From an uncultured Phycisphaeraceae bacterium (GTDB taxonomy: Bacteria > Planctomycetota > Phycisphaerae > Phycisphaerales > UBA1924), in the NCBI GenBank assembly GCA_964615815.1, contig CAZTQV010000013.1, positions 50,359 through 114,358 of the forward strand: 64,000 nt of DNA. Reading direction: 5' to 3'. This document shows positions 677-64,000 of this stretch, one piece after another (the first letter of the stretch is position 1; each line of letters opens with the position of its first letter). Made by a program: the position numbers and the translations under genes. The notes beneath the pieces were generated by a model. That model ran no database searches. It worked only from the letters and a program-made list of their open reading frames with translations, and was not told where the DNA came from.

Positions 677-2179
677 TTACGGGCACCCCGCCGTGTACGC
701 CGCGAGGAACGCGCTGATGTCCGCGAAGGTGAACTGCCCCGCCGGGGCCGCGAGGTCGGCGACCGGGTCGGCGAAGCTGAACGCGCTCAGGAACATCGCG
801 ATATCGCCGAAGGTCAGCTCGTTGAACGGCACCGCGAGGTCCGCCGCGTTGCACGAGGTGGTCGCGAAGGCCACGCTGTCCACGAAAACCGATCCGCCCG
901 GGCTCGACGCCGGCTGGCGGAAGAGGAGCGTCACGCGGGCCTCGACGGCGCCGGCGGGCGCGGCGCCCGTGAGCTCGAAGCGCGACCAGGTGTCCTCGGG
1001 CGAGCCCGCGTCGGCGATCACGATCTCGCTCTCGCCCAGGAACTGAGGCGACCCGTACGCGGCCCCGGCCTCGCTGTAGAACTCGACCTTGAGCAGCGCC
1101 TCGTTCGCGGTGCCCGCGATCGAGTCTTCCGAGCGCGTCAGCGCCTCGCAGCTCGCGACGAACCGCTGCCCGCCGCGGATCGCAACATTCTGCGACGCGC
1201 CGGAGTAGTTCTCCGAGCCGCTGAACTGCCCGTACATCTTGAGCGACCGCTCGCCGTCGAGGGGCGTGCCCCAGTCGGAGAAGACATTGCCGATCGTGTC
1301 GCCGAAGCGGTTCCACGCGTTCATCGCGCCGTTGTCGTCCTCGAAGCCCGCGTCGACCAGCAGCGACACCGGAGGCGGCGGCGTCGCCTGGCGCTGCCAC
1401 ACGCGCACATAGTCGATGTCGAACCACGCGGGGAAGGGCGTCGTCCAGTCCGGGTTCCCCGAGTAATTGCCGCCCACGGCGAGGTTCAGCACGATGCTCT
1501 TGGGCGTCCAGGGGAGGCCGACCGCGGGCTCGTACACCGTCATGTGCTGCACGCCGTCGACATAGAAGCGGACCGTGCCCGGCTCCCACTCGGCCGCGTA
1601 GATGTGGTACCCCGCCTGGAAGTTCGCCCCGCTCTCGTAAGCCTGCGAGACATACTGGTGCGACGCGACATCCCACCCCCAGTGCACCGCGCTGCTGATC
1701 CGCCAGGGCAGGTCGCCGCGTGCCTCCATGATGTCGATCTCGCCGCCCGCGGGCCACGACGCGTTCCGCGGCAAGAGCCAGATCGCCGGCCAGAAGCCTG
1801 TTCCGTTGGGCACCTTCGCCCGCACCTCGAAGCGCCCGTGGCTCCACTCCTGCCAGGTCCGCACCAGGCCCGAGTTGTACTCGCGCCCGAAGTTCCAGTT
1901 GGGGTCGCGGTCCGCCCGCAGGCGCAGCGACCCGCCCGACACCGCGACCTGGTTCGGGTGGTAGTACTGCAGCTCGTTGTTGTTGCTGCCGGCCCAGTTG
2001 GCCACCTCCCACGCCCCTTGGTTGATCGAGGCACCGTCGAAGGTGTCCTGGAACACCGGGTAGCCCCAGCCCGGCGCGATCACCACCTGCCCCAGCGCCG
2101 GCGACGCGAGCAATGCACAGCCAGCACAGGCAGCAAGGGCGAAGGCGCCGGCGACGGACTTGGATCGTGGGCAGGGCAT
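677..2179 (-). CDS. Secreted GH16 beta-glucanase (laminarinase-like) with a central CBM-like domain and a C-terminal tandem FADIS module.
   Basis: Signal peptide MPCPRSKSVAGAFALAACAGCALLA. GH16 catalytic motif GGEIDIMEARG (ExDxxE). C-terminus ...LTFGDIAMFLSAFSFADPVADLAAPAGQFTFADISAFLAAYTAGCP. Confidence 0.85.
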   Translation of the reverse strand: MPCPRSKSVAGAFALAACAGCALLASPALGQVVIAPGWGYPVFQDTFDGASINQGAWEVANWAGSNNNELQYYHPNQVAVSGGSLRLRADRDPNWNFGREYNSGLVRTWQEWSHGRFEVRAKVPNGTGFWPAIWLLPRNASWPAGGEIDIMEARGDLPWRISSAVHWGWDVASHQYVSQAYESGANFQAGYHIYAAEWEPGTVRFYVDGVQHMTVYEPAVGLPWTPKSIVLNLAVGGNYSGNPDWTTPFPAWFDIDYVRVWQRQATPPPPVSLLVDAGFEDDNGAMNAWNRFGDTIGNVFSDWGTPLDGERSLKMYGQFSGSENYSGASQNVAIRGGQRFVASCEALTRSEDSIAGTANEALLKVEFYSEAGAAYGSPQFLGESEIVIADAGSPEDTWSRFELTGAAPAGAVEARVTLLFRQPASSPGGSVFVDSVAFATTSCNAADLAVPFNELTFGDIAMFLSAFSFADPVADLAAPAGQFTFADISAFLAAYTAGCP

Positions 2180-2321
2180 CGGGCACCTCCGGAGATATGG
2201 TCAAACAATCGGCCCAACAGACTATCTGCACGCGAACACCAACGGAAGCAGAATCCGCCGGGAAACGCCGCCGAATCGCCGCGTTTCGGGTTCTCCCTCT
2301 ATCGGTTCTCGGGCACAAGCG

Positions 2322-3317
2322 TCAGTCGGCGTGCGGCGTGAAGGTCGCCCCGCCCAGCCGGCCCGCCGCGGCGCGGGCTGCTTCGGGAGACGCGATCCGC
2401 GCGATCGTCGCGAGCGCGTCGGCGATCCAGCCTCGGCGAGCGGTCACGGTGACCGCGTCGCCGGGCGAAAGCGGGCGGGCGGACGCGGGATCGACGATGT
2501 GCGAGACCGCGTCGGTCCCCTCTCCGCCGGTGACCGACACAACGCGGTACGCATCGCCCGAGGTCGCGACGCCGGCGCGGGCGTCGCGTAGCGTGACCGA
2601 TCGCCCCGCGCCGTCCGTCGCGCGGATGGTCCACGCCTCCGCGCCCGGCGGCGGATCGCCGAGCGCGAGGTCGCCGCCGATCTCGACAAACGCCGAGGAA
2701 TAGCCGCTGTTCTTCAGCGTATCGAGCGCGACATCGGCGGCGAGCCCCTTGCCGATCCCACCGAAGTCCAGCCGCATACCCGCGCGGGCAAACCGCACGC
2801 GTCCGTGTGCCGCATCGAGCTCGAGATGCCCCATGCCGACGCGGGACGCCGCGTCAACCTGCTCATCCTCAGAAGGTGGCACGCCGGTGCGGGCGGCCTC
2901 GCGCCAGAGCGCTGTCACGGGGCCGATGGTGATGTCGAACGCCCCGTCCGACGCACGCCACGCCTCTCGAGACTTCGCGATGGCGTCGATCAGCATCGGG
3001 CTCGCGTCGTGCCAGGCACCCGGCTCGCGTTGCATCAGCAGCATCGCCTCGCTGTCGACGCGGTAGTCGGAGAGGGCTCGCTCGAGTTCGTCGATAACGC
3101 CGAACGCACGCCGCACCGCGGCCACGGGCTCCGTTTCGGCGTAGATGACGATTCGGACGCGGCTTCCCATCGCGAGCCTTGCGTACTCGAAGCGTTCGGC
3201 GGTAGTCTGTGGAGCCCGGTTCGGGGATGTCGTCGCGGCACAACCGAGGGTCATCAGGAGCGCGATCGCGGTGCCGAAAACGACGACGATGTGGCGGCTG
3301 GTGTGGGCGGCGGGCAT
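2322..3317 (-). CDS. apbE: ApbE family FAD:protein FMN transferase, probable lipoprotein.
   Basis: Conserved ApbE blocks FEYARLAMGSRVRIVIY, GGIGKGLAADVA and IRATDGAG. The likely start is the internal Met (MPAAHTSRHIVVVFGTAIALLMTLGC), which gives a signal peptide plus a Cys lipobox. The ORF track extends it to 3491. Confidence 0.65.
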   Translation of the reverse strand: MPAAHTSRHIVVVFGTAIALLMTLGCAATTSPNRAPQTTAERFEYARLAMGSRVRIVIYAETEPVAAVRRAFGVIDELERALSDYRVDSEAMLLMQREPGAWHDASPMLIDAIAKSREAWRASDGAFDITIGPVTALWREAARTGVPPSEDEQVDAASRVGMGHLELDAAHGRVRFARAGMRLDFGGIGKGLAADVALDTLKNSGYSSAFVEIGGDLALGDPPPGAEAWTIRATDGAGRSVTLRDARAGVATSGDAYRVVSVTGGEGTDAVSHIVDPASARPLSPGDAVTVTARRGWIADALATIARIASPEAARAAAGRLGGATFTPHAD

Positions 3318-4119
3318 CGTCGGGACGGTAGCGGTTTGTGCGCGCGGCGGGGTCGGCGGGTGTGCGCTTTCCGGGGTCGGCGAATGTGCGCGCACAGCCG
3401 CGAATGGCGCGCGCACGGATGCCGCGGCCGTGCGCACGATCCGCATCCCCGGCACGGTTGTGGAGTTCGAGTTTGTGCGCGTGGGGCGCACAGAAGGCCC
3501 GGACCTCTGGGTCGCGCGGCACGAGGTGACCTGGGATCTCTACGACATCTACCTCTACGCGCTCGATGTCCCGGAGGGCGAGGCCGACCCGGTGACGCGG
3601 CCGAGCAAGCCGTATGTGCCGCCGGACCGGGGGATGGGGCACGCGGGGTTTCCCGCGATGGGGATGACGCGGCGGGCGGCGGAGGGGTTCTGCGAGTGGC
3701 TCTCAGAGAAGATAGATATACCGGTGCGGCTGCCGACCGAAGATGAGTTTAAATATTATGCAACATTAGAAGAGGGTGAGGTCGGGTCGGAGTTTGCCTG
3801 GACGGAGGAGAACGCGGGCGGGGGAACGAAGCCGGTGGGGTCGCTCGCGGCGAACGGGCACGGCTTGCACGACACGCTCGGGAATGTTGCGGAGTGGGTG
3901 TCGGGCGAGGGCAAGCCCCGGGCGATGGGGGGGAGCTATCTCGATGGGGCCGAGGCCTGCACGCCCTCATCGGTGCAGGAGCAGGCGCGGAGCTGGAACC
4001 GGTCGGACCCGCAGATCCCGAAGAGCCGGTGGTGGCTCGCGGACTGTTCGTGGGTGGGGTTCCGGTTTGTGGCGGAAGTCGACGGCGACGCGGCGGAGGA
4101 GCACGGCGATGACGAGTGA
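3289..4119 (+). CDS. Formylglycine-generating enzyme (SUMF1/FGE) family protein.
   Basis: FGE-sulfatase signature LHDTLGNVAEWV...MGGSYL. Start taken at MWRLVWAAGIVG (signal-like); the track ORF 3145..4119 starts earlier. The start is uncertain because it overlaps the apbE 5' end. Confidence 0.6.
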   Translation: MWRLVWAAGIVGTVAVCARGGVGGCALSGVGECARTAANGARTDAAAVRTIRIPGTVVEFEFVRVGRTEGPDLWVARHEVTWDLYDIYLYALDVPEGEADPVTRPSKPYVPPDRGMGHAGFPAMGMTRRAAEGFCEWLSEKIDIPVRLPTEDEFKYYATLEEGEVGSEFAWTEENAGGGTKPVGSLAANGHGLHDTLGNVAEWVSGEGKPRAMGGSYLDGAEACTPSSVQEQARSWNRSDPQIPKSRWWLADCSWVGFRFVAEVDGDAAEEHGDDE

Positions 4120-10139: not shown

Positions 10140-10969
10140 GCGGCACCGACCAGGCCACGCAGACCGCGCGCGACTACTACAACAGCGCCGACGCCGACAC
10201 CTTCTACGCGGAGGTGTGGGGCGGCGAGGACATCCATGTGGGGCTCTACGAGAGCGCGGATGAGCCGATCCGCACGGCGAGCCGGCGGACCGTTGACCAC
10301 ATGGCCAACCGGCTGGGTCACCTCGACCCCAAGGCCGTGGTCCTCGACATCGGCGCGGGGTACGGGGGCGCGGCGCGGCGGCTGGTCCAGCGGTGCAGCT
10401 GCCGGGTGGTTTGCCTGAATCTTGCCGAGGCGGAGAACGAGCGGAACCGCGAGCTGAACATCGCGGCGGGCCTGGCGCCGAACATCGAGGTCGTTGACGG
10501 CAGCTTCGAGGACATCCCCGCGCCGGACGGCTCGTTCGACGCGGTGTGGTGCCAGGACGCGATCCTGCACTCGGGGAATCGTGCGAAGGTGCTCGGAGAG
10601 GTCAACCGAGTGCTGAAGCACGGCGGGAAGTTCGTCTTCACCGACCCGATGCGGGCCGATGACTGCCCGGAGGGCGTGCTCGACCCGATCCTCGCGCGGA
10701 TCCACCTGCCGGACCTCGGCTCGCCGGGGTTCTACATGGGTGAGGCGGAGAAGCACGGGTGGAAGAACCTGGGTTTCGAGGACCTGACCGGGCAGCTCGC
10801 CAACCACTACCGCCGCGTGCTCGAGACGCTCCAAGAAGAAGAGGAGCGGCTGAAGGGTAAGATCTCGCCCGAGTACATCGAGCGGATGAAGGCCGGGCTC
10901 GGGCACTGGATCAAGGGCGGGACGGATCGTCACCTGGCGTGGGGCGTGTTCCTGTTCCAGAAGCCATGA
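10136..10969 (+). CDS. Sarcosine/dimethylglycine N-methyltransferase.
   Basis: Signature ARDYYNSADADTFYAEVWGGEDIHVGLY, typical of SDMT/DMT enzymes of the glycine-methylation betaine pathway. SAM motif VLDIGAGYGGAARRL. Confidence 0.8.
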   Translation: MSGTDQATQTARDYYNSADADTFYAEVWGGEDIHVGLYESADEPIRTASRRTVDHMANRLGHLDPKAVVLDIGAGYGGAARRLVQRCSCRVVCLNLAEAENERNRELNIAAGLAPNIEVVDGSFEDIPAPDGSFDAVWCQDAILHSGNRAKVLGEVNRVLKHGGKFVFTDPMRADDCPEGVLDPILARIHLPDLGSPGFYMGEAEKHGWKNLGFEDLTGQLANHYRRVLETLQEEEERLKGKISPEYIERMKAGLGHWIKGGTDRHLAWGVFLFQKP

Positions 10970-12750: not shown

Positions 12751-15700
12751 TCAGTTGCACCCGACCGCGAACGACTGCAGGAACGACGAGATATCCGCGA
12801 AGGTGAACTGCCCGATCGGCGCCGCGATGTCGGCGGCGGGGTCCATCGCGCTGAACGCGGCGAGGAACGCCGAGATATCCGCGAAGCTGAGCTGGCCGAC
12901 CGGGAAGGCGAAGTCGCTGCGGCAGGTGATGGCGACGACGGCCTCGTCGGCGTCGTAGAACATGCGGATCACCGCGTCCGCCGGCAGGGTGCCGACATAC
13001 TCGACGGTGTCGAACCGGCCCGTGAGGTTGGGCGAGGTGACGACGGTGTAGCGCGAGGGGCGGGGCGGGACGAAGCCGTCGATGGGCTCGAAGCGGATCG
13101 TGCCGCCGAGCTGCACGGGCAGGGTCGCGTCGATGCGGTCGTTGACTTCGACGGCGTTCGCCTGGGCGGTGTAGGTGGCGGTGGGGGCGAGGGTCAGGAT
13201 CGAAGCGGGCCCGGTGGAGCCGGCAACGATGGTGTTCACCGGGCCGGTGGTGGGGCTGGTGGCGGTGCCGGGGGCGATGCCACCCTCGATGACGATCGAG
13301 CCCACGAGGCGGCCGCGGCCGGTGAGCGACTGGCCCGCGCCGAGCGTCAGCGTGGCCCCGTCGAAGGCGAAGAGGCGGGCGTCGTTGAAGTCGCCGCTGG
13401 TGTCGGGGATGTTCAGCACGATGTCGCCCGTGCCGGTGATGGTGGTGTCGGCGGGGGCGTTCAGGCTCGTTGTGAAGATGCCGCCGCCCGTGGTGGTGTT
13501 GATGAGCAACGAGCCGTCGTTGACGAAGCCGCCGAGGATGTCGACCTCGGCGCCGTCGCGGATGCCGGCGTCTCCCGTGTTCTGCACATTCTCGATCGTG
13601 TTCGCGTTGCCCAGGAAGTGCACCGCGCCGCCGTTGCTGCTGGCGAGCGTGCCCCCGGAGAGGGCGGCGTTGAGGAGGACGGCGAACCCGCCGTCGTCGC
13701 CGCGGAGCTGGCCGTTCGCGGCCTGCGTCATCGTCCCCGTGATGCGCAGGTCCTGGCCCGCGCGGTCGCCCGTGATGGTGCCTTCGTTGATCCAGTTGCC
13801 GATCATTTGCCCCTTGCCGGAGATGGTGTGGCCGGGGCCGTGGGTCGCGGTGACGGGGCCGACGCCGTCGGTGCGGAGCTGCGCGTCGCCGAAGTCGGCG
13901 TTGCCGTCGCCGACATTCAGCTCGATGCGCCCCGTGCCCTCGATCGTGGTGTCTTCGGCGGCGTTGAGCACGCTGGTGAAGACGCTCTGCTCGGCGTTCA
14001 CGACGAAGAGGCCGTCGTTGACCAGCCCGCCGGACAGCAGGTCGATCCGGCCGCCGCTGCGGATGCCGGCGTCGCCGGTGTTGTGGATGTTGCTCACGGT
14101 GCTCGCGGTGCCCAGGGCGTACACGCCGCCGCCGCTGCCGTCGCTGGCGAAGGTGACTCCGTCGAGCGTGGCGCCCTCGATCGCGACGAACCCGCCGTTG
14201 ACCCCGTTCAGCAGCCCGTCGCTCCCGGGCAGCAGGCGGGCCGTGACGCGCAGGTCCTGCCCCGGGCGATCGGCCCGGATCTCGCCGCGCATGATCCAGT
14301 CGCCGCGCACGCGGCCCTTGCCGTAAATGACCTGCCCGGCCCCGAGCGTCCCGGTGATGTCGGTGCCCGTCGTCACGCGGGCGTCATCGAAGTCGGCGTT
14401 GGCGTCGTTGACATTGAGCTGGATCGTGCCGACGCCGTCGATCGCGGTGTCGTCGACGATCGTGAGCGTGGTGGTGAAGGGCGAGCTGTTGTCGTTGATG
14501 TCGATCGTGCCGTTGTTGGTCAGCCCGCCGCCGGCGACGCCGAGCGTCTGCCCGCCGTTGATGCCGACCGCGCCCTCGTTGGTGACGCCGTCGAGCGTGC
14601 TGGTGCCGCCGGTGGCGACGACCCGGCCGGCGTCGGCCTTCGTCAGCTTGCCGCCGGTGACGGTGACCGCGTTCAGCCCGAGCACGCCCCCGTTGATCGC
14701 CCGCAGCTCGCCGCTCGGCGGCTGCACGAGCTGGCCGCTGACGCGAAGTTCCTGCCCGGCGCGGTCGGCGAGAAAGGTGCCGTTGTTGACCCACGACCCG
14801 TTGATCAGCCCCTTGCCCGAGACGGTGTGGTTCGCGCCGTTGGTCGCGGTGACGCCGGTGTCGGTGAACAGCAGCGCGTCGCCCAGGTCGACATTGGCGT
14901 CCGCGACATTCAGGTCGAAGACGCCCCCGCCCGAGATCGTCGTGCTCGCGCTCACCCGCACGCGGGCCGAGAGCGAGCTCTGGAAGACATTCACCGTGAC
15001 CGTGGCGTTGTTCGTCACCGGCCCCGCGATGATCATCTCGCCCGTGTTGGTGGTCTCGACCACGCCGGACAGCGTCACGCCGTTGGTCAGCGTGCCCGCG
15101 CTCGAGCCGAACCGCACCCGCCCGCCGGTATCGGACGACACCGGCCCGCCGCGGATGATCGCCCCTTCGGCGATGCCCAGGATGCCCCCGCCCGTCGCCC
15201 GCAGCTCGCCCGTGCCCGAGCGCGTCACATCGCCCGACACGCGCAGCTCCTGGTCCGCGCGGTCCGCGAGGATCAGGCCCGCGTTCGTGAACACGCCCGA
15301 CACGATCCCCTTGCCCTTGATCGTGTGCCCCGCCCCGTGCAGGCCCGCGCCCGCGATGGTCAGCCGCGCGTCGGAGAAGTCAACATTCCCGTCGGCCAGG
15401 TTCAGCTCGACGATCCCCGACCCCGTCAGCATCCCGGGAGCGCTGCCGCCGATGTCCAGACGGTTGCTGAGCGCCCCCTGGTTCGCGTTCAGCACGATCA
15501 CCCCGTCGTTCACCACCGAGCCGCCGGGCACCGCGTAGGTCTGCGCGTTGTTGATCGCCAGCACAGCCTCCGGGTTCAGGATCGACAGACCCCCGACCGT
15601 GGGCGAGGTCCGCACCGTCACCGTGTACGCCCCGGCCAGCGAGATCTCCGCTGACTCCGAGATCGTGTCCGGCACGCCCATCGACCAACTCGCCGCGTCG

Positions 15701-15810
15701 TCGTAGAACCCGCCGCCGGCGTTGTTCCACGAGCTGACCTGCCCGTGCGTCGCCCCGGCAAGGGCGACCAAGAGCAGAGGGGCGGCGATGCGATGGGCTG
15801 AACGGACCAT
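12751..15810 (-). CDS. Giant secreted repeat protein A (~1019 aa). About 10 tandem modules of ~100 aa with the pattern GxGHTIxGKG...ADRxGQxLRxxG, plus a C-terminal tandem FADIS module.
   Basis: Signal peptide MVRSAHRIAAPLLLVALAGATHG. The ATG at 15810 was chosen rather than the longer track ORF. Internal repeats are visible in the translation. C-terminus CRSDFAFPVGQLSFADISAFLAAFSAMDPAADIAAPIGQFTFADISSFLQSFAVGCN. Confidence 0.8.
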   Translation of the reverse strand: MVRSAHRIAAPLLLVALAGATHGQVSSWNNAGGGFYDDAASWSMGVPDTISESAEISLAGAYTVTVRTSPTVGGLSILNPEAVLAINNAQTYAVPGGSVVNDGVIVLNANQGALSNRLDIGGSAPGMLTGSGIVELNLADGNVDFSDARLTIAGAGLHGAGHTIKGKGIVSGVFTNAGLILADRADQELRVSGDVTRSGTGELRATGGGILGIAEGAIIRGGPVSSDTGGRVRFGSSAGTLTNGVTLSGVVETTNTGEMIIAGPVTNNATVTVNVFQSSLSARVRVSASTTISGGGVFDLNVADANVDLGDALLFTDTGVTATNGANHTVSGKGLINGSWVNNGTFLADRAGQELRVSGQLVQPPSGELRAINGGVLGLNAVTVTGGKLTKADAGRVVATGGTSTLDGVTNEGAVGINGGQTLGVAGGGLTNNGTIDINDNSSPFTTTLTIVDDTAIDGVGTIQLNVNDANADFDDARVTTGTDITGTLGAGQVIYGKGRVRGDWIMRGEIRADRPGQDLRVTARLLPGSDGLLNGVNGGFVAIEGATLDGVTFASDGSGGGVYALGTASTVSNIHNTGDAGIRSGGRIDLLSGGLVNDGLFVVNAEQSVFTSVLNAAEDTTIEGTGRIELNVGDGNADFGDAQLRTDGVGPVTATHGPGHTISGKGQMIGNWINEGTITGDRAGQDLRITGTMTQAANGQLRGDDGGFAVLLNAALSGGTLASSNGGAVHFLGNANTIENVQNTGDAGIRDGAEVDILGGFVNDGSLLINTTTGGGIFTTSLNAPADTTITGTGDIVLNIPDTSGDFNDARLFAFDGATLTLGAGQSLTGRGRLVGSIVIEGGIAPGTATSPTTGPVNTIVAGSTGPASILTLAPTATYTAQANAVEVNDRIDATLPVQLGGTIRFEPIDGFVPPRPSRYTVVTSPNLTGRFDTVEYVGTLPADAVIRMFYDADEAVVAITCRSDFAFPVGQLSFADISAFLAAFSAMDPAADIAAPIGQFTFADISSFLQSFAVGCN

Positions 15811-15947
15811 TCTCTTCTCTCCCAAGTACTTGGACGGCCCCGGGGAGACCGCGCAGCACCCCCGGGAACCGGGAGGGTACAGCCGCGCGGGCCTCGATGA
15901 AAGCGGAAACAGCCGCGAAAGCGCGCCCCGAGCCCCGTTCCGGACCC

Positions 15948-18900
15948 TCAGGGGCACCCGCCGGCGAAGGCCGACAGAAACGCCGAGATATCGGCAAAGG
16001 TGAACTCCCCGGCGGGCGCCGCGAAGTCCGCGGCGGGGTCCCGGGCCGCGAACGCCGAGAGGAACACGGAGATATCCGCGAAGGTCAGCGAGCCCACCGG
16101 CAGGGCGAGGTCGGCGGAGCAGGTGACGACCGCGAGGACCCGCGTCGGCTCGACGAACACGCGGAACACCCCGCCCGGGGCCAGGTCGCCCGTGAACTCG
16201 ACCGCGTCGAACCCGCCCGTGATCGAGGGCGCCGTGATCAGCGGGAACTCAGCGCCGACGAACGGCACGAACCCGTCGATCGGTTCGAAGCGGAGTGTCC
16301 CGCCAAGCTCGACCGGAACGGTCGCCTCGATGCGGTCGTGTATGAAGATGAAGCTTGCCTGGACCTCGTAGACCGAGGTCTCCGTCAGCACAACGCCCGA
16401 ATCCGGACCGTTGCTGTCGGCGGTGATGATATCGGTCGGGGCATCCGCCGAGCCGGGCGAGAGCGCCCCCTCCACGCGGAACGAGCCGAGGAGTTGCCCG
16501 CGGCCGCTGATCGTCTGGCCCGGGCCAAGGGTGAGCGTCACGCCGGGGTCGGTGCGGAGCCGGGCGTCCTCGACAAGCCCGCTTCGTTTGCTCGTGTTGA
16601 GCACAATCCCGCCGTTTCCTTCGATGGTCGAATCCACCGTCGCGTCAAGGCTGGCTATGGAAATACCGGCGGTCGAGTTCACGACGATGATGCCGTCGTT
16701 GATCAACCCGCCGAGGATGTCCACAGACGCGAACTCTCGTACACCAGCTTCGCCAGTGTTGCGGATGTTCGCGATCGTGTTCGCTCTGCCCCTGAAGTCA
16801 ACGCCACCGCCCGTGCTGCTGGCGAGGGTGCCACCGGAAAGACTGGCATTGCTCAATGTCGCGCGGCCCCCGTTCTCCCCGCGGATGACACCCGTCGAGG
16901 TCTGCGTCATCGTGTCGCTGATGCGGAGATCCTGGCCCGGGCGATCGGCGACGATGATCCCCTCGTTGATCCATGTCCCGCTGATCTGGCCCTTGCCCGC
17001 GATCGTGTGGCCGGGTCCGTTGGTCGCGATCGCGGCATTGAGAAAGTCGGTTGTAATTTCGGCATCTTCGTAGTCTGAGCCGGCATCAGCGAGGTTAAGC
17101 TCGACGCGGCCGGTGCCGTTGATGGCTGCAGACTCCAGGAAATAGAGAGTTGTAGGACTTGCCTCGGCAGTCACATTGACCACGAACATCCCGTCATTGA
17201 TCATGCCGCCAGCGAGGAGATCGAGCCGCCTGCCCGCCACGATGCCTGAGACGCCGGTGTTATGGATGTTGTTGGCGCGACTTGGCAATTCCTGCCTACC
17301 GGCCGCATAGACGCCGCCACCGGCGTCGTCGCTTGCTAGGGTCAGGCCGTCAAGGTGTGCCTCAAAGATAATTACGCCACCGTTTATGGCGTTGAGTAAG
17401 CCGTCACTCCCCGACATCGAGTTGCTGAAGATTCGGCCACCGCCGGGGCGGTCGGCGCGGATCTCGCCGTGCACAATCCAATTGCCGATGACAAAGCCCT
17501 CGCCGAGGATGATGAGTTGCGAGGCACCGAGTGTTCCGGTCGTGCCATTCGCGACGCGGAGCTGGGAGCGTTCGTAAAGGCGGATGGCGCCGGCTCCATC
17601 GATGTTTGCGTTGTCGACCAGGGTGAGCGTGGTGCCGAACACCGAGCCGTCATCGCCAACATCGACGATGCCGTTGTTGGTCAATCCGCTGGCGATGACC
17701 AGCGTCTGTCCGTCCATCAGGCCCAGCGTGCCCTCGTTCGTCACGCCGACCAGCGTCGTCGGGCCACCTGTCGCGACGATGTGACCGCCTTCGTCCGTGG
17801 TGAGCGAGCCGCCGGTCAGCGTGAGGTTGTTCAGCCCGAGGACGCCCCCGTTGACCGCGCGGAGTTCGCCCTCGCCAGACTGCACGACCTCGCCGCGTAC
17901 ACGCAGTTCCTGGCCAGGGCGATCGCTCAAAAATGTGCCTTCGTTGATCCACGACCCGTCGATCCGCCCTTTGCCGGAGATGGTGTGGCTCGCCCCGTTG
18001 GTCGCGATGACCCCGGAATCGGTGTAGATGTAGGCTTCAGAGAACTCGTCGCTGCTGTCCGCGACATTCAGATCAATCTTTCCGCTTCCGGAAATCGCCG
18101 CAGAGGTGCGGATGCGGATCGCCGAAATCGACGAACTCTGAAACGCATTCACGGAAACCGTCGCGTTGTTCGTCACCGGCCCCGCGATGATCATCTGGCC
18201 CGCGTCGGTCGTTTCGACGACACCCGAAAGCACGACACCATTGGTCAGCGTGCCGGTACCCGAGCCGAACCGGATTCGTCCTCCCGAATCCGACGATACC
18301 GACCCGCCGCGGATGACCGCCCCATCGGCAACGCCCAGGACGCCGCCGTTGGTCGCGCGAAATGCGCCCGATCCGAAGCCCCGGACATTGCCGCCGATGC
18401 GCAGTTCCTGGCCCGGCCGGTCCGCAAGGATCAGCCCGCTGTTGGTAAAGACGCCGAGGACGGTCCCCTTGCCCTTGATCGTGTGCCCCGCCCCGTGCAG
18501 CCCGTTCCCGCTGATGCGGACCCGCGCACCGGCGAGATCATCGCTCGCGTCGCCCAGGTTCAACTCCAGAACGCCCGTGCCTGTCAGCATCCCGTCGATG
18601 CCGCCACCGCCGATGTCGAGCAGGCTGCTCAGCGGCCCCTGGTCCGCGTTCAGGACGATCAGGCCGTCGTTCACCACGGACCCGTTCGCCACGCCGTAGG
18701 ACCGGTCGCTGTTGATCGCCAAGACCGCACCCGGGTTGCGGATCGCGAGCGATCCCGCCGTGGGTGAGGTCCGCACCGTCACCGTGTACATGCCCGCGAG
18801 CGAGATCTCGGCCGATGCCGAGATGGTGTCCGGCACGCCCATCGACCAACTCGATGCATCGTCGTAGAACCCCCCGCTCGGGTTCGTCCACGAGCTGACT

Positions 18901-18998
18901 TGCCCCGCCGCCGAGCCCGCAACGAGCACGGACGCGGCGAACACGATCCGTCGTGGGAAGGGACTCGGGCGGGACGATCGGGTCGCGGGGTGGTTCAT
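15948..18998 (-). CDS. Giant secreted repeat protein B (1016 aa), tandem paralog of 12751..15810.
   Basis: The N-terminal ~300 aa are about 80% identical to protein A (QVSSWTNPSGGFYDDASSWSMGVPDTISASAEISLAG...). It has the same repeat architecture. C-terminus CSADLALPVGSLTFADISVFLSAFAARDPAADFAAPAGEFTFADISAFLSAFAGGCP. Confidence 0.8.
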   Translation of the reverse strand: MNHPATRSSRPSPFPRRIVFAASVLVAGSAAGQVSSWTNPSGGFYDDASSWSMGVPDTISASAEISLAGMYTVTVRTSPTAGSLAIRNPGAVLAINSDRSYGVANGSVVNDGLIVLNADQGPLSSLLDIGGGGIDGMLTGTGVLELNLGDASDDLAGARVRISGNGLHGAGHTIKGKGTVLGVFTNSGLILADRPGQELRIGGNVRGFGSGAFRATNGGVLGVADGAVIRGGSVSSDSGGRIRFGSGTGTLTNGVVLSGVVETTDAGQMIIAGPVTNNATVSVNAFQSSSISAIRIRTSAAISGSGKIDLNVADSSDEFSEAYIYTDSGVIATNGASHTISGKGRIDGSWINEGTFLSDRPGQELRVRGEVVQSGEGELRAVNGGVLGLNNLTLTGGSLTTDEGGHIVATGGPTTLVGVTNEGTLGLMDGQTLVIASGLTNNGIVDVGDDGSVFGTTLTLVDNANIDGAGAIRLYERSQLRVANGTTGTLGASQLIILGEGFVIGNWIVHGEIRADRPGGGRIFSNSMSGSDGLLNAINGGVIIFEAHLDGLTLASDDAGGGVYAAGRQELPSRANNIHNTGVSGIVAGRRLDLLAGGMINDGMFVVNVTAEASPTTLYFLESAAINGTGRVELNLADAGSDYEDAEITTDFLNAAIATNGPGHTIAGKGQISGTWINEGIIVADRPGQDLRISDTMTQTSTGVIRGENGGRATLSNASLSGGTLASSTGGGVDFRGRANTIANIRNTGEAGVREFASVDILGGLINDGIIVVNSTAGISIASLDATVDSTIEGNGGIVLNTSKRSGLVEDARLRTDPGVTLTLGPGQTISGRGQLLGSFRVEGALSPGSADAPTDIITADSNGPDSGVVLTETSVYEVQASFIFIHDRIEATVPVELGGTLRFEPIDGFVPFVGAEFPLITAPSITGGFDAVEFTGDLAPGGVFRVFVEPTRVLAVVTCSADLALPVGSLTFADISVFLSAFAARDPAADFAAPAGEFTFADISAFLSAFAGGCP

Positions 18999-41757: not shown

Positions 41758-41786
41758 GGTGAACGCCATAGGTACCGGGAGTCGCC

Positions 41787-42056
41787 ATGACAAATTGGCT
41801 GCCGCCGCAACAGGGCGAAACGGTCATCCTCGGCGACACCACGAACGAGGCTGGGCGGATGGCGTGGCTTTGTTCGCAGTACCTCGTCAAGATTGTGGTT
41901 CTGCCGCAGCTTATGACATGTATCTACAAAGCACCCGATGGGCAGTTGTGGATCGAGGAGTATCCCCACGCGGAACGGCATGGTGGCGGCCCGATGCGGC
42001 TCCGACTCGTCGATCGGGCGCAGGTTAAGGCGATGTTGATCGCGGAGATCTCCTGA
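41787..42056 (+). CDS. Hypothetical small protein in the lower-GC islet.
   Basis: ORF only. Codon usage is less GC-biased than neighbouring genes. Followed immediately by structured repeat copy 1. Confidence 0.3.
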   Translation: MTNWLPPQQGETVILGDTTNEAGRMAWLCSQYLVKIVVLPQLMTCIYKAPDGQLWIEEYPHAERHGGGPMRLRLVDRAQVKAMLIAEIS

Positions 42057-42063
42057 TACGAAC

Positions 42064-42166
42064 GGGCGTCGTCGGCACGGCTTGCCGCAGAGCCGGTCAA
42101 GCCGTGGCACCCGGCGTCTGGTGTGGGCCGGCACTACGCGACGCGGGGCGTCGCATAGTGGCACCG
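42064..42166. repeat. Structured intergenic repeat of ~103 bp, copy 1, containing two hairpins: CACGGCTTG-N13-CAAGCCGTG and GCGACGC-GGGG-GCGTCGC.
   Basis: About 90% identical to 43831..43933. A 33-bp core also occurs at 43053..43085. Confidence 0.6.
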
Positions 42167-42295
42167 CGCGAGATCGTGGTTGCTTGGCCTCGGTCGCCGG
42201 CTGCCGAATCTGTGAAGGTAAGGCAGACGAGCTATGCGCCGTTATCGCATCGGCACGGTACGATCCTGCGGTTGTTCACCTGAGGGCTGGCTGAG

Positions 42296-43006
42296 ATGCG
42301 ATACTTGGTCTTGTTGGTTGCGATATTGGTGCTGATGTCGGTGGTTTCCTGTCGGTCGGTGGAGACAAACGGTGCGTCTGCTTCCGCTGAACCTGAAGCG
42401 GTTGCGGGCAATGTAGTTGCGTCCCCTGCGTCGCAGTGGGCTTCGAGCCTCGTTCGATGGCGGGTCTCTGCGACTAACGAGGGCGACGGCGAGCTTGTGG
42501 GTCGCAGTGCAACCGCAAGTGCTCATGATGGTCTTGCGGTCATCGTTGACAGAGTGAGGCACGACAATGAATTGGTTGTGTCGCAGTATGTGGTGGATAT
42601 TGATGCAGACGGGACCGTCGAGGAAGTTCTCGAGTCGGTCGAGTTGTATCGCGTGTCGGGTGATGAGTACGAACTGTATCGACGGCTTGCAGATGAGCTG
42701 TGCGCGGCGTGCGATGGCATCAGTGTCCGTCCATTAGAGATAGTGGGCAATATAGTTGTGCACAGCAACTACGAGTGTGATAGATACATTGTTGTTGATT
42801 CAGTTGCTGCAATAAATGTAATGATAAATCGCGCTGCGTTTCCGGGCTTTGAAGCATACATTGAATCCCGAATAGCTCGGTCCATTGCAAAGAGCGAGTT
42901 GTCGAGAATAAGCTACCAAACAGTTCGACAGAATTGTGGCCAAATTGAGGGCGCTTTGTTAGATGTGTTTGACGAGCTGCAAATGGCCGCGGCGCAGGCA
43001 GAGTGA
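42296..43006 (+). CDS. Hypothetical lipoprotein in the lower-GC islet.
   Basis: Lipoprotein signal MRYLVLLVAILVLMSVVSC. GC content is clearly below the window average. No recognisable domain. Confidence 0.5.
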   Translation: MRYLVLLVAILVLMSVVSCRSVETNGASASAEPEAVAGNVVASPASQWASSLVRWRVSATNEGDGELVGRSATASAHDGLAVIVDRVRHDNELVVSQYVVDIDADGTVEEVLESVELYRVSGDEYELYRRLADELCAACDGISVRPLEIVGNIVVHSNYECDRYIVVDSVAAINVMINRAAFPGFEAYIESRIARSIAKSELSRISYQTVRQNCGQIEGALLDVFDELQMAAAQAE

Positions 43007-43032
43007 TGCTGGGGTTCGTGCCTCGGCCATGA

Positions 43033-43090
43033 GCGGCTTCCTCGGCGCGGATTGTCGCAGAGCCGGTCAAGCCGTGGCACCCGGCTCGGC
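43033..43090. repeat. Partial copy (core TGTCGCAGAGCCGGTCAAGCCGTGGCACCCGGC) of the structured repeat.
   Basis: A 33-nt block nearly identical to the core of copy 1. Lies between the lipoprotein ORF and the membrane-protein ORF. Confidence 0.5.
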
Positions 43091-43185
43091 CGCGGGCGGG
43101 CTGCATCGCTTTGGCACGAGTCGGGTGTACGCTGAGCGCGGTGCCAAGTGTCGCGAGTGTGGTCGCGCTTTGAAAGGGATGTATC

Positions 43186-43803
43186 TTGAATGGCCGAGGG
43201 TGCCCGTCGCCGCGGGGTATCCGTTTCCAGCTATGCACGCCTGAAGAGGCTGTCGCGAATGGTGCGAGCTATTCGAGTTGGTCGTTGCGTCCGGCGCTCG
43301 TGTGGTGGTTCTTTGGCATCCTGCTTGTGGTGATTCCTTGGGGCATTGAGTATGGCGGCTGGTTGCCGGCAGTGTATCGGAGTCCAGACGAGATCGAGGC
43401 CGATGCGCCTGTTCGAAATCATCTCTTCGTAGGTCTCATCGCGTTCTATGTCATCGCCTTTGGTGGTGGTGCGCTGCGTGCGGCGACTTACGAGCACATC
43501 GTGGTCGAGAATGACCGGTGTCACCTGCGTTGGAAGTTCACGCCGTGGGTCACCTGGAAAAGCAGGCGGTTCCGGGTGCCCGTTCCGGTCATGCTTGTGC
43601 GTGCTTCATCGCAGTTCGGGAACATTGGATATCGTGAAGTTGGCGTGTTGGTGTGCTTTCGCGCCCATGATGCCAATGTCTGCGTCGCGGGGTTCAAGAC
43701 GGAAGGCGAAGCGCGGGATTGGATCGGGCGGGTGCCGCAATCGCGTATCCGCGTGGATGAAGTCGTTCGTAGCTGGATGGTCAGTACGGTCCCGTTTCCG
43801 TAG
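43186..43803 (+). CDS. Hypothetical membrane protein (2 N-terminal TM helices plus a soluble domain) in the lower-GC islet.
   Basis: Hydrophobic segments LVWWFFGILLVVIPWGI and LFVGLIAFYVIAFGGGAL. Lower GC. No known domain. Confidence 0.45.
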   Translation: MNGRGCPSPRGIRFQLCTPEEAVANGASYSSWSLRPALVWWFFGILLVVIPWGIEYGGWLPAVYRSPDEIEADAPVRNHLFVGLIAFYVIAFGGGALRAATYEHIVVENDRCHLRWKFTPWVTWKSRRFRVPVPVMLVRASSQFGNIGYREVGVLVCFRAHDANVCVAGFKTEGEARDWIGRVPQSRIRVDEVVRSWMVSTVPFP

Positions 43804-43830
43804 GTTGTGCGACGCCGCTTTGTGGCAAGT

Positions 43831-43933
43831 GGGCGTCGTCGGCACGGCTTGGTGCGGAACCGGTCAAGCCGTGGCGCCCGGTGTATGGGGTGGGGCGGCA
43901 CTACGCGACGCGGGGCGTCGCATAGTGGCACCG
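43831..43933. repeat. Structured intergenic repeat, copy 3 (full length).
   Basis: GGGCGTCGTCGGCACGGCTTGGTGCGGAACCGGTCAAGCCGTGGCGCCCGG...GGCGGCACTACGCGACGCGGGGCGTCGCATAGTGGCACCG. About 90% identical to copy 1. The loop differs while the stem is kept. Confidence 0.6.
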
Positions 43934-43943
43934 GGGGTTGTGA

Positions 43944-44024
43944 ATCAGAGCCGCGATCGTGAGATCGCGGGGTTTGTGCGCCGGTCGTGGGGGCGGACCG
44001 CGATCTCACGATCGCGGCTCTGAT
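43944..44024. repeat. Perfect 27-bp inverted repeat (ATCAGAGCCGCGATCGTGAGATCGCGG / CCGCGATCTCACGATCGCGGCTCTGAT) separated by a 27-nt GC-rich spacer. Sits at the 3' end of the Hsp70 gene and is a probable bidirectional terminator / REP-like element.
   Basis: Read directly from the sequence. The left arm recurs verbatim at 48934..48960. Confidence 0.6.
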
Positions 44025-44100
44025 TGGGAGTGGCTCTGATTGGAGTGGTGCTGGTTGGGAGTGGCTCTGATTGGAGTGGTGCTGGTTGGGAGTGGGTCTG
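44018..44100. repeat. Tandem direct repeat: about 2.6 copies of a 31-bp unit (CTCTGATTGGAGTGGTGCTGGTTGGGAGTGG).
   Basis: Read directly from the sequence, immediately after the inverted repeat and before the Hsp70 stop codon at 44108. Confidence 0.55.
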
Positions 44101-44107
44101 GTTGGGG

Positions 44108-63118: not shown

Positions 63119-63540
63119 CGGTCCGCCGACGACCACCGCACCATACCTCTTCGGTGGGATGGCCTTCTAGGCCGTCCGCGCCGCCTATCTCCTCCCCCGC
63201 CGCCGAAGGGTGGGGCGGGGGAGGTGGCATCGCGCAGCGATGACGGACGGGGTAAAGAACAACAAAGCGCAGCGCTTCCTCTGCCTAATTCTCCTCCCAA
63301 GCGCAGCGCCTCCCCCACCTTTCCAAGCCTCGTCACTCACCAACCGCCCATCATTACCACAAGCCACCGCCAAACCGAAGACAATCGGGTGCCGCGGCCG
63401 ATCTGGCCATGCGGATCAGCCCTCGCTGGGGTCTACGACAGCTCGCCGCAAGACTCTGAATACTTCCAGCAACACGCTACAACTCTGTCAGTGCCATGCC
63501 TTTAAAGCCAGCAGAATGCAATCGTGCCATCACCATGTAA

Positions 63541-63774
63541 TTACCTCACTCGCCGACAGGTCCACAAAACGCTGCGGAGATAAACGAACGCCTCTTCGAC
63601 AGAACGATGCCTCACTTCCATGTGACGCCGACCGCGCTCAAATGTAAACACAAACCAATATGGCGGCTCCTCAACAAGACATACGGCGCCCTCTTTTTCA
63701 CCCCCGAAGCTATATAGGTATTCTGCAAAACCTTCTTCGGATAATAATCTCTCCATTTCATCATATTGCATCAT
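63541..63774 (-). CDS. Hypothetical small protein encoded in an AT-rich (foreign-like) segment.
   Basis: The 77-aa ORF has A/T-rich codon usage unlike the rest of the window. No recognisable domain. Local GC drops to about 45-50% over 63500-63800. Confidence 0.25.
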   Translation of the reverse strand: MMQYDEMERLLSEEGFAEYLYSFGGEKEGAVCLVEEPPYWFVFTFERGRRHMEVRHRSVEEAFVYLRSVLWTCRRVR

Positions 63775-64000
63775 TATAGTTCTCTAGCGATAAGTTTGAT
63801 CGCGCCGCATTCTATCCATTCCTGAATGGACTTGGTAGCCCTCCGTTGCATCGCATTCCCGGCTTGGCTAAACGCCCTAGCCGTCAGCGAGCAGTAGAGC
63901 TCTACCGGCCGCACTCCGGTCGCCTCAAACATACAGCGGCCGGGTGCCGTTGTCGATCCGGCTCAGCGGGTCGGCCACGACCAAGCAAACCCCACACGCC

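Follow-up and report, generated by a model that had tools for sequence, protein, structure and literature searches.

Heterogeneous polyimmunity loci are tandem series of co-oriented, unrelated immunity genes with no toxin gene between them, and their content varies among relatives (PMC3482391). Imm27, one of the families catalogued in such loci, is the primary immunity protein for RHS-borne Ntox10 toxins (PMC3482391). In Bacteroidales, the rAID-1 systems combine orphan immunity genes of skewed GC content with integron-like intergenic repeats, and a XerD-like recombinase located at the 5' side is their defining element (10.1101/471110). As regards repeats, repetitive extragenic palindromes (REPs) are divided into GTAG- and CGTC-tagged superfamilies in which head-to-tail dimers are under-represented; they are transcribed and stabilise the upstream mRNA (PMC3733652). 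The locus considered here shares features with each of these systems. It is a low-GC islet (41.76-44.1 kb) in a 64,000-nt stretch of DNA, hereafter the window, of an uncultured Phycisphaeraceae bacterium (assembly GCA_964615815.1, contig CAZTQV010000013.1, positions 50,359 to 114,358). It lies between tdh and hsp70 and holds three co-oriented open reading frames (ORF1 to ORF3, + strand), each followed by a full or partial copy of a hairpin-forming repeat. The interpretation favoured here, with some reserve, is that of a small heterogeneous polyimmunity (orphan-immunity) locus, in which the palindrome would serve as a module junction or as shared homology, and insulation of gene 3' ends would be a side effect.

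The immunity-gene nature of the islet ORFs is the main point overlooked by the preliminary description of this DNA, which placed the three ORFs correctly and saw no recognisable domains in any of them. That remains true of ORF2, a genuine orphan, and fails for the other two. ORF1 is an immunity protein matching the Imm27 profile (Pfam PF15590) with 38.2 bits at a gathering score of 27.3 (E 1.3e-9). For ORF3, a search of 5.8 billion clustered proteins yielded a single relative, P0003, with 52% identity over the full length. The gene of P0003, on contig L068, begins 6 nt past an ORF which ends in an RHS core domain (...RFRHYRPRLGRWIQPDPAGYIDGPSVYLFVLSAPTTWVDPLGL) and a variable tail of ~200 aa; the core was recognised by NCBIfam TIGR03696 (RHS repeat-associated core domain) with 67.6 bits, the cutoff being 32.5. 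This is the canonical place for a cognate Rhs immunity gene, and the family of ORF3 is thus linked to Rhs. Homology between the ORF3 and P0003 loci starts at about codon 4 and stops at the stop codon; with no homology outside the ORF, the repeat is part of the array and did not travel from the Rhs donor locus. No similarity to the 3' end of the L068 toxin ORF, as would be left by a toxin C-terminal or core remnant, was detected 5' of ORF3. A derivation of the repeat from Rhs-core or other coding sequence was considered and dismissed, as no Rhs-like motif occurs in its six-frame translations and the sequences on either side of the Rhs-linked ORF3 homologue are not homologous to it. Searches of the PDB sequences with ORF1 and ORF3 gave no matches, nor did a PADLOC scan of all islet ORFs.

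ORF2 matched nothing but itself among the 5.8 billion clustered proteins, and an exhaustive HMMER search of 1.84 billion representative proteins returned ORF2 and one borderline match limited to the N-terminal ~80 residues (E 8.8e-4). Its single-sequence AlphaFold2 (AF2) model was unusable (pLDDT 46.7). An immunity role of ORF2 is presumed from its position alone. As for the contig of the ORF3 homologue, two further observations can be mentioned. The variable C-terminal domain of its Rhs toxin (L068, 1-881) is glycine-rich and hydrophobic and possibly membrane-active, in keeping with an immunity protein having two transmembrane segments (2-TM). Near the contig end (2190-2225) a tRNA/tmRNA-like 3' end, GGTTCGAGTCCACTACCGCCCACCA, occurs which was not called by ARAGORN, and it may be an att-site fragment of an island bearing the Rhs locus.

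The islet is foreign to its surroundings. The GC dip between tdh and hsp70, reported in the preliminary description, is clear: at a window mean of 0.693 +/- 0.033 (500-nt bins), the six bins over 41.5-44.5 kb have GC contents of 0.61, 0.63, 0.50, 0.62, 0.64 and 0.62 (z -1.7 to -5.8), and elsewhere in the window values below 0.62 are found only at 17.0-17.5 kb and in the last bin, 63.5-64.0 kb. GC content at third codon positions (GC3) is 0.74, 0.54 and 0.67 in ORF1, ORF2 and ORF3 respectively, against 0.85-0.95 in the surrounding genes (tdh 0.90, hsp70 0.91), so all three ORFs are compositionally foreign and also differ from one another. The content of the slot is variable as well. Among the relatives with long contigs, the two closest (Tdh identity 86% and 83%) keep the order T2SSF-tdh-X-hsp70-redoxin, and X is a single unrelated gene, a 210-aa lipoprotein-like ORF in one (L071) and an unrelated 224-aa ORF with GC3 of 0.69 in the other (L072); in L074, a third relative, the tdh-hsp70 slot is taken by a beta-helix protein of 1114 aa. 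The repeat was found in none of these three slots. The link to horizontally acquired genes, which had been suggested before, is therefore borne out both by codon composition and by the exchange of the slot gene among relatives. Among the ~40 gene-like ORFs scanned in the window those with domain matches are of housekeeping types; domain scans revealed no toxin domain either within 41.7-44.1 kb or in the genes on its two sides, and a sigma-70 promoter scan gave no call.

Compared with the polyimmunity loci, the islet likewise contains at least two tandem, co-oriented genes of immunity families (ORF1 as Imm27, and the family of ORF3), no toxin gene interrupts or adjoins them, and the content varies among relatives. 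The intergenic distances are not short: short polycistronic spacers are usual there, whereas here the gaps are 239 and 179 nt and are occupied by strong hairpin repeats. Planctomycetota are not in the phyla listed for extended loci (PMC3482391), and the islet has no adjacent XerC/D gene. The nearest functional analogue is rAID-1, which has in common with the islet at least two co-directional genes, a GC content skewed from that of the host and repetitive intergenic sequences. In contrast to rAID-1 with its XerD-like recombinase at the 5' side, the upstream gene of the islet is tdh and no recombinase was met among the scanned ORFs; its repeats have no sequence relation to those of rAID-1, and its host belongs to another phylum. 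The features of both islets discussed in this text are listed in Table 1.

Table 1. Coordinates of the features found in the window (R1, covariance model of the repeat)
Feature	Position	Strand	Description
ORF1	41787..42056	+	89 aa, Imm27-family immunity protein; start 29 nt past the tdh stop codon
Repeat copy 1	42064..42166	+	Head-to-tail dimer; R1 72 bits
Copy 1, hairpin 1	42076-42106	+	CACGGCTTG/CAAGCCGTG with inner CCG/CGG, loop CAGAGC, tail GCACCCGG
Copy 1, hairpin 2	42132-42160	+	13-bp stem, GGG loop, tail GCACC
ORF2	42296..43006	+	236 aa, lipoprotein-like: signal peptide and Cys19; orphan
Repeat copy 2	43034..43086	+	Monomer, 5' arm decayed (CGCGGATTG); R1 60.9 bits
ORF3	43186..43803	+	205 aa, 2-TM protein; the homologue is a Rhs-associated immunity protein
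Repeat copy 3	43831..43933	+	Head-to-tail dimer; hairpin 1 at 43843-43873, hairpin 2 at 43899-43927; R1 61.8 bits
Inverted repeat	43943..44025		Perfect, 28 bp, 27-nt spacer; between copy 3 and the hsp70 stop codon; right edge of the islet
Tandem array	44016..44106		31-nt period, 16-nt sub-period, ~3 to 6 copies; adjoins the stop codon of hsp70
Hairpin unit	63383..63423	-	Weak, degenerate, tail GGCACCCGA; R1 16.5 bits, E 0.04-0.13; 3' of the second-islet ORFs
Second islet	63541..63932	-	Low GC (0.53-0.64), two overlapping ORFs
Second-islet ORF	63541-63774	-	77 aa, GC3 0.47, putative immunity
Second-islet ORF	63774-63932	-	52 aa; weakly matches the C-terminal half of the TNT toxin domain, E 0.016, sub-threshold
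Hairpin unit	63938..63991	-	Diverged; loop CTGAGC, tail GGCACCCGG; R1 17.2 bits

The repeat copies start 7, 40 and 27 nt past the stop codons of ORF1, ORF2 and ORF3, and the next ORF begins 129 or 100 nt after the repeat. Copies 1 and 3 are full and 91% identical over 103 nt. The claim that each ORF is followed by a copy needs qualification for copy 2, which is partial: its ~30-nt core, comprising the loop, the 3' arm and the tail (43053-43085), is identical to copy 1, the 5' arm is mutated and the hairpin is no longer intact. The tail of copy 2 also serves as the 5' arm in another local hairpin, which extends to ~43130. Two hairpins had been described in the full copies and both of them fold accordingly, except that hairpin 2 is longer than was stated. 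Hairpin 1 has the layout CACGGCTTG-CCG-CAGAGC-CGG(T)-CAAGCCGTG, and hairpin 2 consists of CACTACGCGACGC/GCGTCGCATAGTG paired over 13 bp around a GGG loop, its single C.A mismatch on the + strand being a G.U pair on the - strand. Since one unit, CGGCAC-[stem-loop-stem]-GTGGCACC, underlies both hairpins, the 103-nt repeat is a head-to-tail dimer. As a consensus, the unit reads GGCAC-stem-CNGAGC loop-return stem-GTGGCACCC(GG). Fold z-scores of the repeats range from -2 to -5.8. As to chance, the 16-mer repeat core occurs three times in the window (0.19 expected), a 34-mer of hairpin 2 twice (0 expected), and the generic unit pattern four times, always in the islet (0.66 expected). A motif GGCACCCGG is also seen inside ORF3 on the minus strand (43565-43580), with an 81% inverted match over 16 nt to the region of the copy 2 tail (43076-43091), possibly by chance. 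Two other identities of the motifs were ruled out: the sigma-54 -24/-12 reading of TGGCAC, by eye, for its wrong spacing to TTGC, and the dif/Xer site reading of hairpin 1 (11-6-11), for the family loop length of 6 to 9 or more.

The repeats are true repeats also at the level of assembly. Two short-read assemblies of this organism, obtained independently, match the window at 100% identity, and their contigs end exactly at k-mers common to the repeat copies (42101, 42137 and 43925), which is typical behaviour of assemblers at such places. When R1 was run over the window with all filters off, significant scores were obtained only for the three islet copies. No unit was found in the ~61 kb of core window DNA and no significant R1 match in 75 kb of DNA of the relatives, which speaks against the repeat being ubiquitous at gene ends. 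Measured within the 64-kb window, the association with foreign islets is exclusive: the intergenic regions with a unit are 3/3 inside the islet as compared with ~0/45 outside it (Fisher p=6e-5), and six of the ten GGCRCCCGR motifs fall in two islets covering together 4.7% of the window (p=2e-6).

The second islet, at the end of the window, has the diverged unit 63938-63991 directly 5' of its ORFs and in the same orientation. This unit keeps the inner CCG/CGG stem, and its loop, arm and tail signature has the 25-nt spacing seen in the first islet. It is present in two independent Logan assemblies (26.8 bits, E 2e-4) with one stem base changed: at ~63950 the window has T and both assemblies have G (L075, ~10296), which restores pairing. 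Together with the degenerate unit on the other side, the second islet is flanked by co-oriented units on both sides; the corresponding stretch of L075 is 10200-10411. No database record was found for the 77-aa ORF. Both independent assemblies run ~67 nt beyond the window and end there in C-rich sequence of low complexity. Orphan rhs-CT/rhsI and cdiA-CT/cdiI modules are comparable to the first islet in that immunity genes occur without a full-length toxin and repeats have been proposed as drivers of recombination; the second islet may, like such modules, hold a 5'-truncated toxin fragment with its immunity gene. In those modules, however, the repeat is the coding sequence of the toxin core (PxxxxDPxGL or VENN) and the array stands behind a main rhs or cdiA gene, whereas the repeat of the islet is non-coding and palindromic, ORF3 is not preceded by a toxin-core remnant and the window has no rhs gene. 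The bracketing of cargo by same-strand hairpins, with a short conserved motif beside the hairpin foot, resembles the PATEs derived from IS200/IS605, which differ in that the unit has neither a TnpA/TnpB gene nor a defined target tetranucleotide; any mobility of the unit would be hypothetical.

An integron-like origin of the repeats had been put forward, and the resemblance is real to some extent: as in integron cassettes and CALINs, a homogeneous structured repeat, always in one orientation, stands behind every one of a series of ORFs that are of mixed origin and seem to lack promoters. Membership in the attC family is nevertheless rejected on three defining features that were tested. The R''/R' cores (RYYYAAC/GTTRRRY) are absent, the repeat ends being GGGCGTCG... 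and ...GTGGCACCG, and the sole near-match, GTCAAGC, lies inside the 31-nt hairpin and not at a site boundary. An attC site is one imperfect hairpin of 57-141 nt with extrahelical bases, whereas the repeat forms two separate short hairpins of 31 and 29 nt. Finally, a complete integron would have IntI and attI nearby, and no integrase was found among the gene-like ORFs scanned in the 64 kb, although a CALIN would need none. The islet differs from integrons also in the distance from a repeat to the ORF that follows, which is 100-130 nt.

The comparison with REP, BIME and REPIN elements is the closest, and of the affinities proposed in the preliminary description this one fits best. The units, like these elements, are GC-rich extragenic stem-loops of 30-50 nt in which the stem base and the tail are conserved and the top is variable; they occur as singles, dimers and inverted pairs, mostly after genes, and are common to related genomes. 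The fit is incomplete, as the unpaired GTAG or CGTC tag of REPs is replaced by a 3' GTGGCACCC tail and the CNGAGC loop: GTAG was found in none of 12 units, and CGTC only in some of them, at no fixed position. REPs are present in tens to hundreds per genome, whereas the copy number of the unit appears low. Moreover, the dimers of the window are head-to-tail, its units are confined to foreign islets and no RAYT was seen in it.

With 5-7 units in the window, more are found in the contigs L001, L031, L051 and L066. A 22-mer of the shared core had one relevant match among 185,579 species-representative genomes, in a Phycisphaerales metagenome-assembled genome (MAG), JTS-AC57, where it is the single exact match genome-wide (L001); the other species representatives have none, and exact scans of this kind miss diverged copies. 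In L001 hairpin 1 begins 3 nt past the stop codon of the second of two paralogous genes with GC3 of 0.67 (0.92 in the neighbour). The repeat is a direct dimer there too, and its hairpin 2 has a wholly different stem with the GCAC...GTGGCACCCGG flanks and the CAGAGC loop kept. These tandem paralogues (1091-3826, - strand) consist of an N-terminal transmembrane segment, a zinc-ribbon-like CPxC...CPxC and a large domain with no Pfam match. A metagenome scan with an 18-mer gave 62 matches, and only in L031, L051 and L066 is the complementary 5' arm present. L031 has an inverted pair between divergent native genes for a methyltransferase and an MFS transporter (GC3 0.94), L051 an inverted pair 3' of a native lipoprotein gene which has its own T-tract terminator, and L066 two single copies separated by ~9 kb, of which one lies between two genes in antisense orientation. 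Neither spacing nor loop length is constant in the family. The remaining metagenome and genome matches (from the 62 and a further 2), including the actinomycete L002, are due to chance and mostly lie in coding DNA; two matches in viral contigs lack the 5' arm and are likewise chance 18-mer matches, and blastn against plasmids gave no match. Taken as a whole, the distribution is that of REP/BIME-type extragenic palindromes.

In the islet itself the stems have been spared from change. All nine differences between copies 1 and 3 are outside the 44 stem positions (hypergeometric p=0.005). In an alignment of ten hairpin-1-type units (A3) 91% of cells pair, as compared with 90.5% in shuffled controls, and only one pair has changed on both sides; single-sided changes are 6 G.U, 4 A.C and 6 other mismatches, that is, there is no strand bias. 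Structural constraint is thus better argued, if weakly, by the replacement of the hairpin 2 stem between the window and L001 and by the sparing of stems in copies 1 and 3. The selection on structure supposed earlier holds in this weak form and not in that of significant covariation. As for RNA, a scan against Rfam 15 (E up to 10) gave chance-level miRNA/sRNA matches that fell well short of the gathering score and lay outside the repeats, no tRNA was found, and a scan for intrinsic terminators detected neither a U/T tract nor a terminator at any copy, the tails being GCACCCGG and GCACCGCG; its single terminator-like call (42289-42310) overlaps the start of ORF2. The earlier suggestion of an sRNA or terminator family thus finds no support. 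A palindrome acting at DNA level, with a sequence-specific loop and tail, is favoured over a strand-specific RNA because the stem is replaced while loop and flanks are kept, stems are spared, neither covariation nor strand bias is seen, and Rfam, tRNA and T-tract signals are absent.

On these grounds the islet may be pictured as follows. Three unrelated, horizontally acquired genes, ORF1 as an Imm27 protein, ORF3 as a membrane immunity protein for an Rhs toxin family and ORF2 as a lipoprotein with an assumed equal role, would protect the cell against contact-dependent Rhs-type polymorphic toxins, the cognate toxin being absent. The islet copies are far closer to each other than to any other copy of the family, which means that they were propagated locally together with the genes, and for this reason the palindrome is favoured as a junction at which modules are added, swapped and lost. 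This propagation took place while the array was growing. Acting at DNA level, the palindrome would be a junction or portable homology where gene-sized modules join, exchange or drop out, the exchange taking place by recombination between repeat copies. The strong hairpins, once placed, would incidentally insulate the 3' ends of genes.

A number of observations weigh against this interpretation. An integrase, transposase, recombinase, RAYT or full-length toxin was not met among the ~40 gene-like ORFs scanned in the window, so no enzyme can be named. Presence or absence of a single cassette was not observed as a polymorphism, the two samples being identical in sequence, and there is no repeat 5' of ORF1. 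In comparison with polyimmunity loci the array is small, with only three genes, and beyond its position nothing points to the function ascribed to ORF2. Covariation across the ten family members is not significant. The units in L031, L051 and L066 adjoin native genes, and the element is hence not limited to immunity cassettes. The units of the second islet and the TNT match are each weak when taken alone.

Other explanations have to be weighed on the same evidence. It is conceivable, although unlikely, that the repeats are recombination sites of a cassette system, in which toxin/immunity cassettes of gene size are inserted or cut out by an unlinked enzyme that reads the hairpin in its folded state. 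Candidates for such an enzyme would be a tyrosine recombinase, of the kind known from integrons and rAID-1, or an HUH/Y1 single-strand transposase, as with IS200/IS605, PATE and RAYT, and the CNGAGC loop and GGCACCC tail would then be the determinants of protein recognition and cleavage. Such a system would account for unrelated ORFs of differing composition each followed by a ~90%-identical structured repeat in the same orientation, for loops and tails kept while stems are swapped wholesale (hairpin 2 of the window and L001), for a second islet placed between two direct units in the manner of IS200/IS605 ends, and for ORF3 homology restricted to a gene-sized unit; orphan immunity arrays with integron-like intergenic repeats have a precedent in rAID-1 (10.1101/471110). 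The lack of a recombinase or transposase among the gene-like ORFs scanned in the 64 kb and the lack of attC cores count against it, the variable spacing and loop length of the family are awkward for a fixed recombination site, inverted pairs stand beside native genes too, and no pair of empty and occupied sites was observed. More specifically, the units could be recognition sites of an unlinked HUH/Y1-type or tyrosine recombinase which takes up toxin/immunity cassettes of gene size and shuffles them in Phycisphaerales, an idea that is put forward here as speculation with a small chance of being right. If true, it would mean an integron-like or rAID-like system built on a REP-type single-strand hairpin and would tie REP-like elements, so far without function, to the acquisition of interbacterial defence genes.

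Inverted pairs, dispersal over several genomes and varied orientation are typical of REP/BIME/REPIN elements, and they would be expected if the repeats were REP/MITE-like palindromes of a selfish kind and without function for the islet, spreading by a mechanism of their own and persisting where an insertion is tolerated, in the long intergenic stretches of foreign islets, which are under weak constraint, the periodicity being a by-product. The decay of copy 2 and the absence of covariation and strand bias agree with this explanation. It is considered quite doubtful, as all units of the window are in two foreign islets and co-oriented with the ORFs (p about 1e-5 to 1e-6), substitutions have left the stems untouched, and the islet copies are nearly identical including the spacer and of a dimer type rare in REPs (PMC3733652), which indicates local co-propagation and not independent insertions. 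Least probable of all is that the repeats function mainly as RNA, be it as factor-independent terminators, as 3'-end stabilisers of immunity mRNAs or as a small RNA family. The distance of 7-40 nt from the stop codons, the co-orientation with the ORFs and the fold z-scores could suggest it, and for REPs both transcription and a stabilising effect on the mRNA upstream are on record (PMC3733652). Yet no U-tract, terminator call or Rfam match was obtained, hairpin 2 pairs better on the antisense strand, G.U changes are no commoner than A.C changes, members in L031 and L066 are located 5' of divergent genes or antisense to genes, and a terminator needs no conservation of loop and tail sequence. 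The polyimmunity reading with a DNA-level junction is therefore retained, the immunity function of ORF2, the recombination role of the repeats and any effect at RNA level being its conjectural parts.

A few neighbouring features deserve mention. The perfect 28-bp inverted repeat at the right edge of the islet folds with z-scores of -9.2 and -13.5, was not found at the equivalent position in the relatives L071 and L072, and may represent a terminator acting in both directions or else a further palindromic element. The outer end of its arm and the unit of the adjacent tandem array have GGCTCTGATT in common, and the array unit does not occur elsewhere in the window. The GC skew is strongly positive from ~35.5 to 47.5 kb whatever the gene orientation, with the islet inside this block, and flips sign at both block ends (35.5 kb and 47.5-49.5 kb). 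At 12751-18998 on the - strand two large adjacent paralogous ORFs of 1068 and 1016 aa contain internal repeats of ~500 nt and match nothing in Pfam; it is the second of them that includes the GC dip at 17.0-17.5 kb (0.598).

To our knowledge, orphan-immunity arrays have been described mainly from Proteobacteria, Bacteroidota and Firmicutes, and the way in which genes are collected is understood only where a recombinase is attached. The islet would show the same orphan-immunity strategy in a lineage of Planctomycetota, with no recombinase in the window and with each gene closed by a member of a previously undescribed REP-like family. If the link between the repeats and the genes is causal, this would be a concrete case of REP-like hairpins serving as junctions for the capture of accessory genes. 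If it is not, two genes otherwise regarded as hypothetical still become immunity genes, and a new repeat family of Phycisphaerales, together with its covariance model, is gained.

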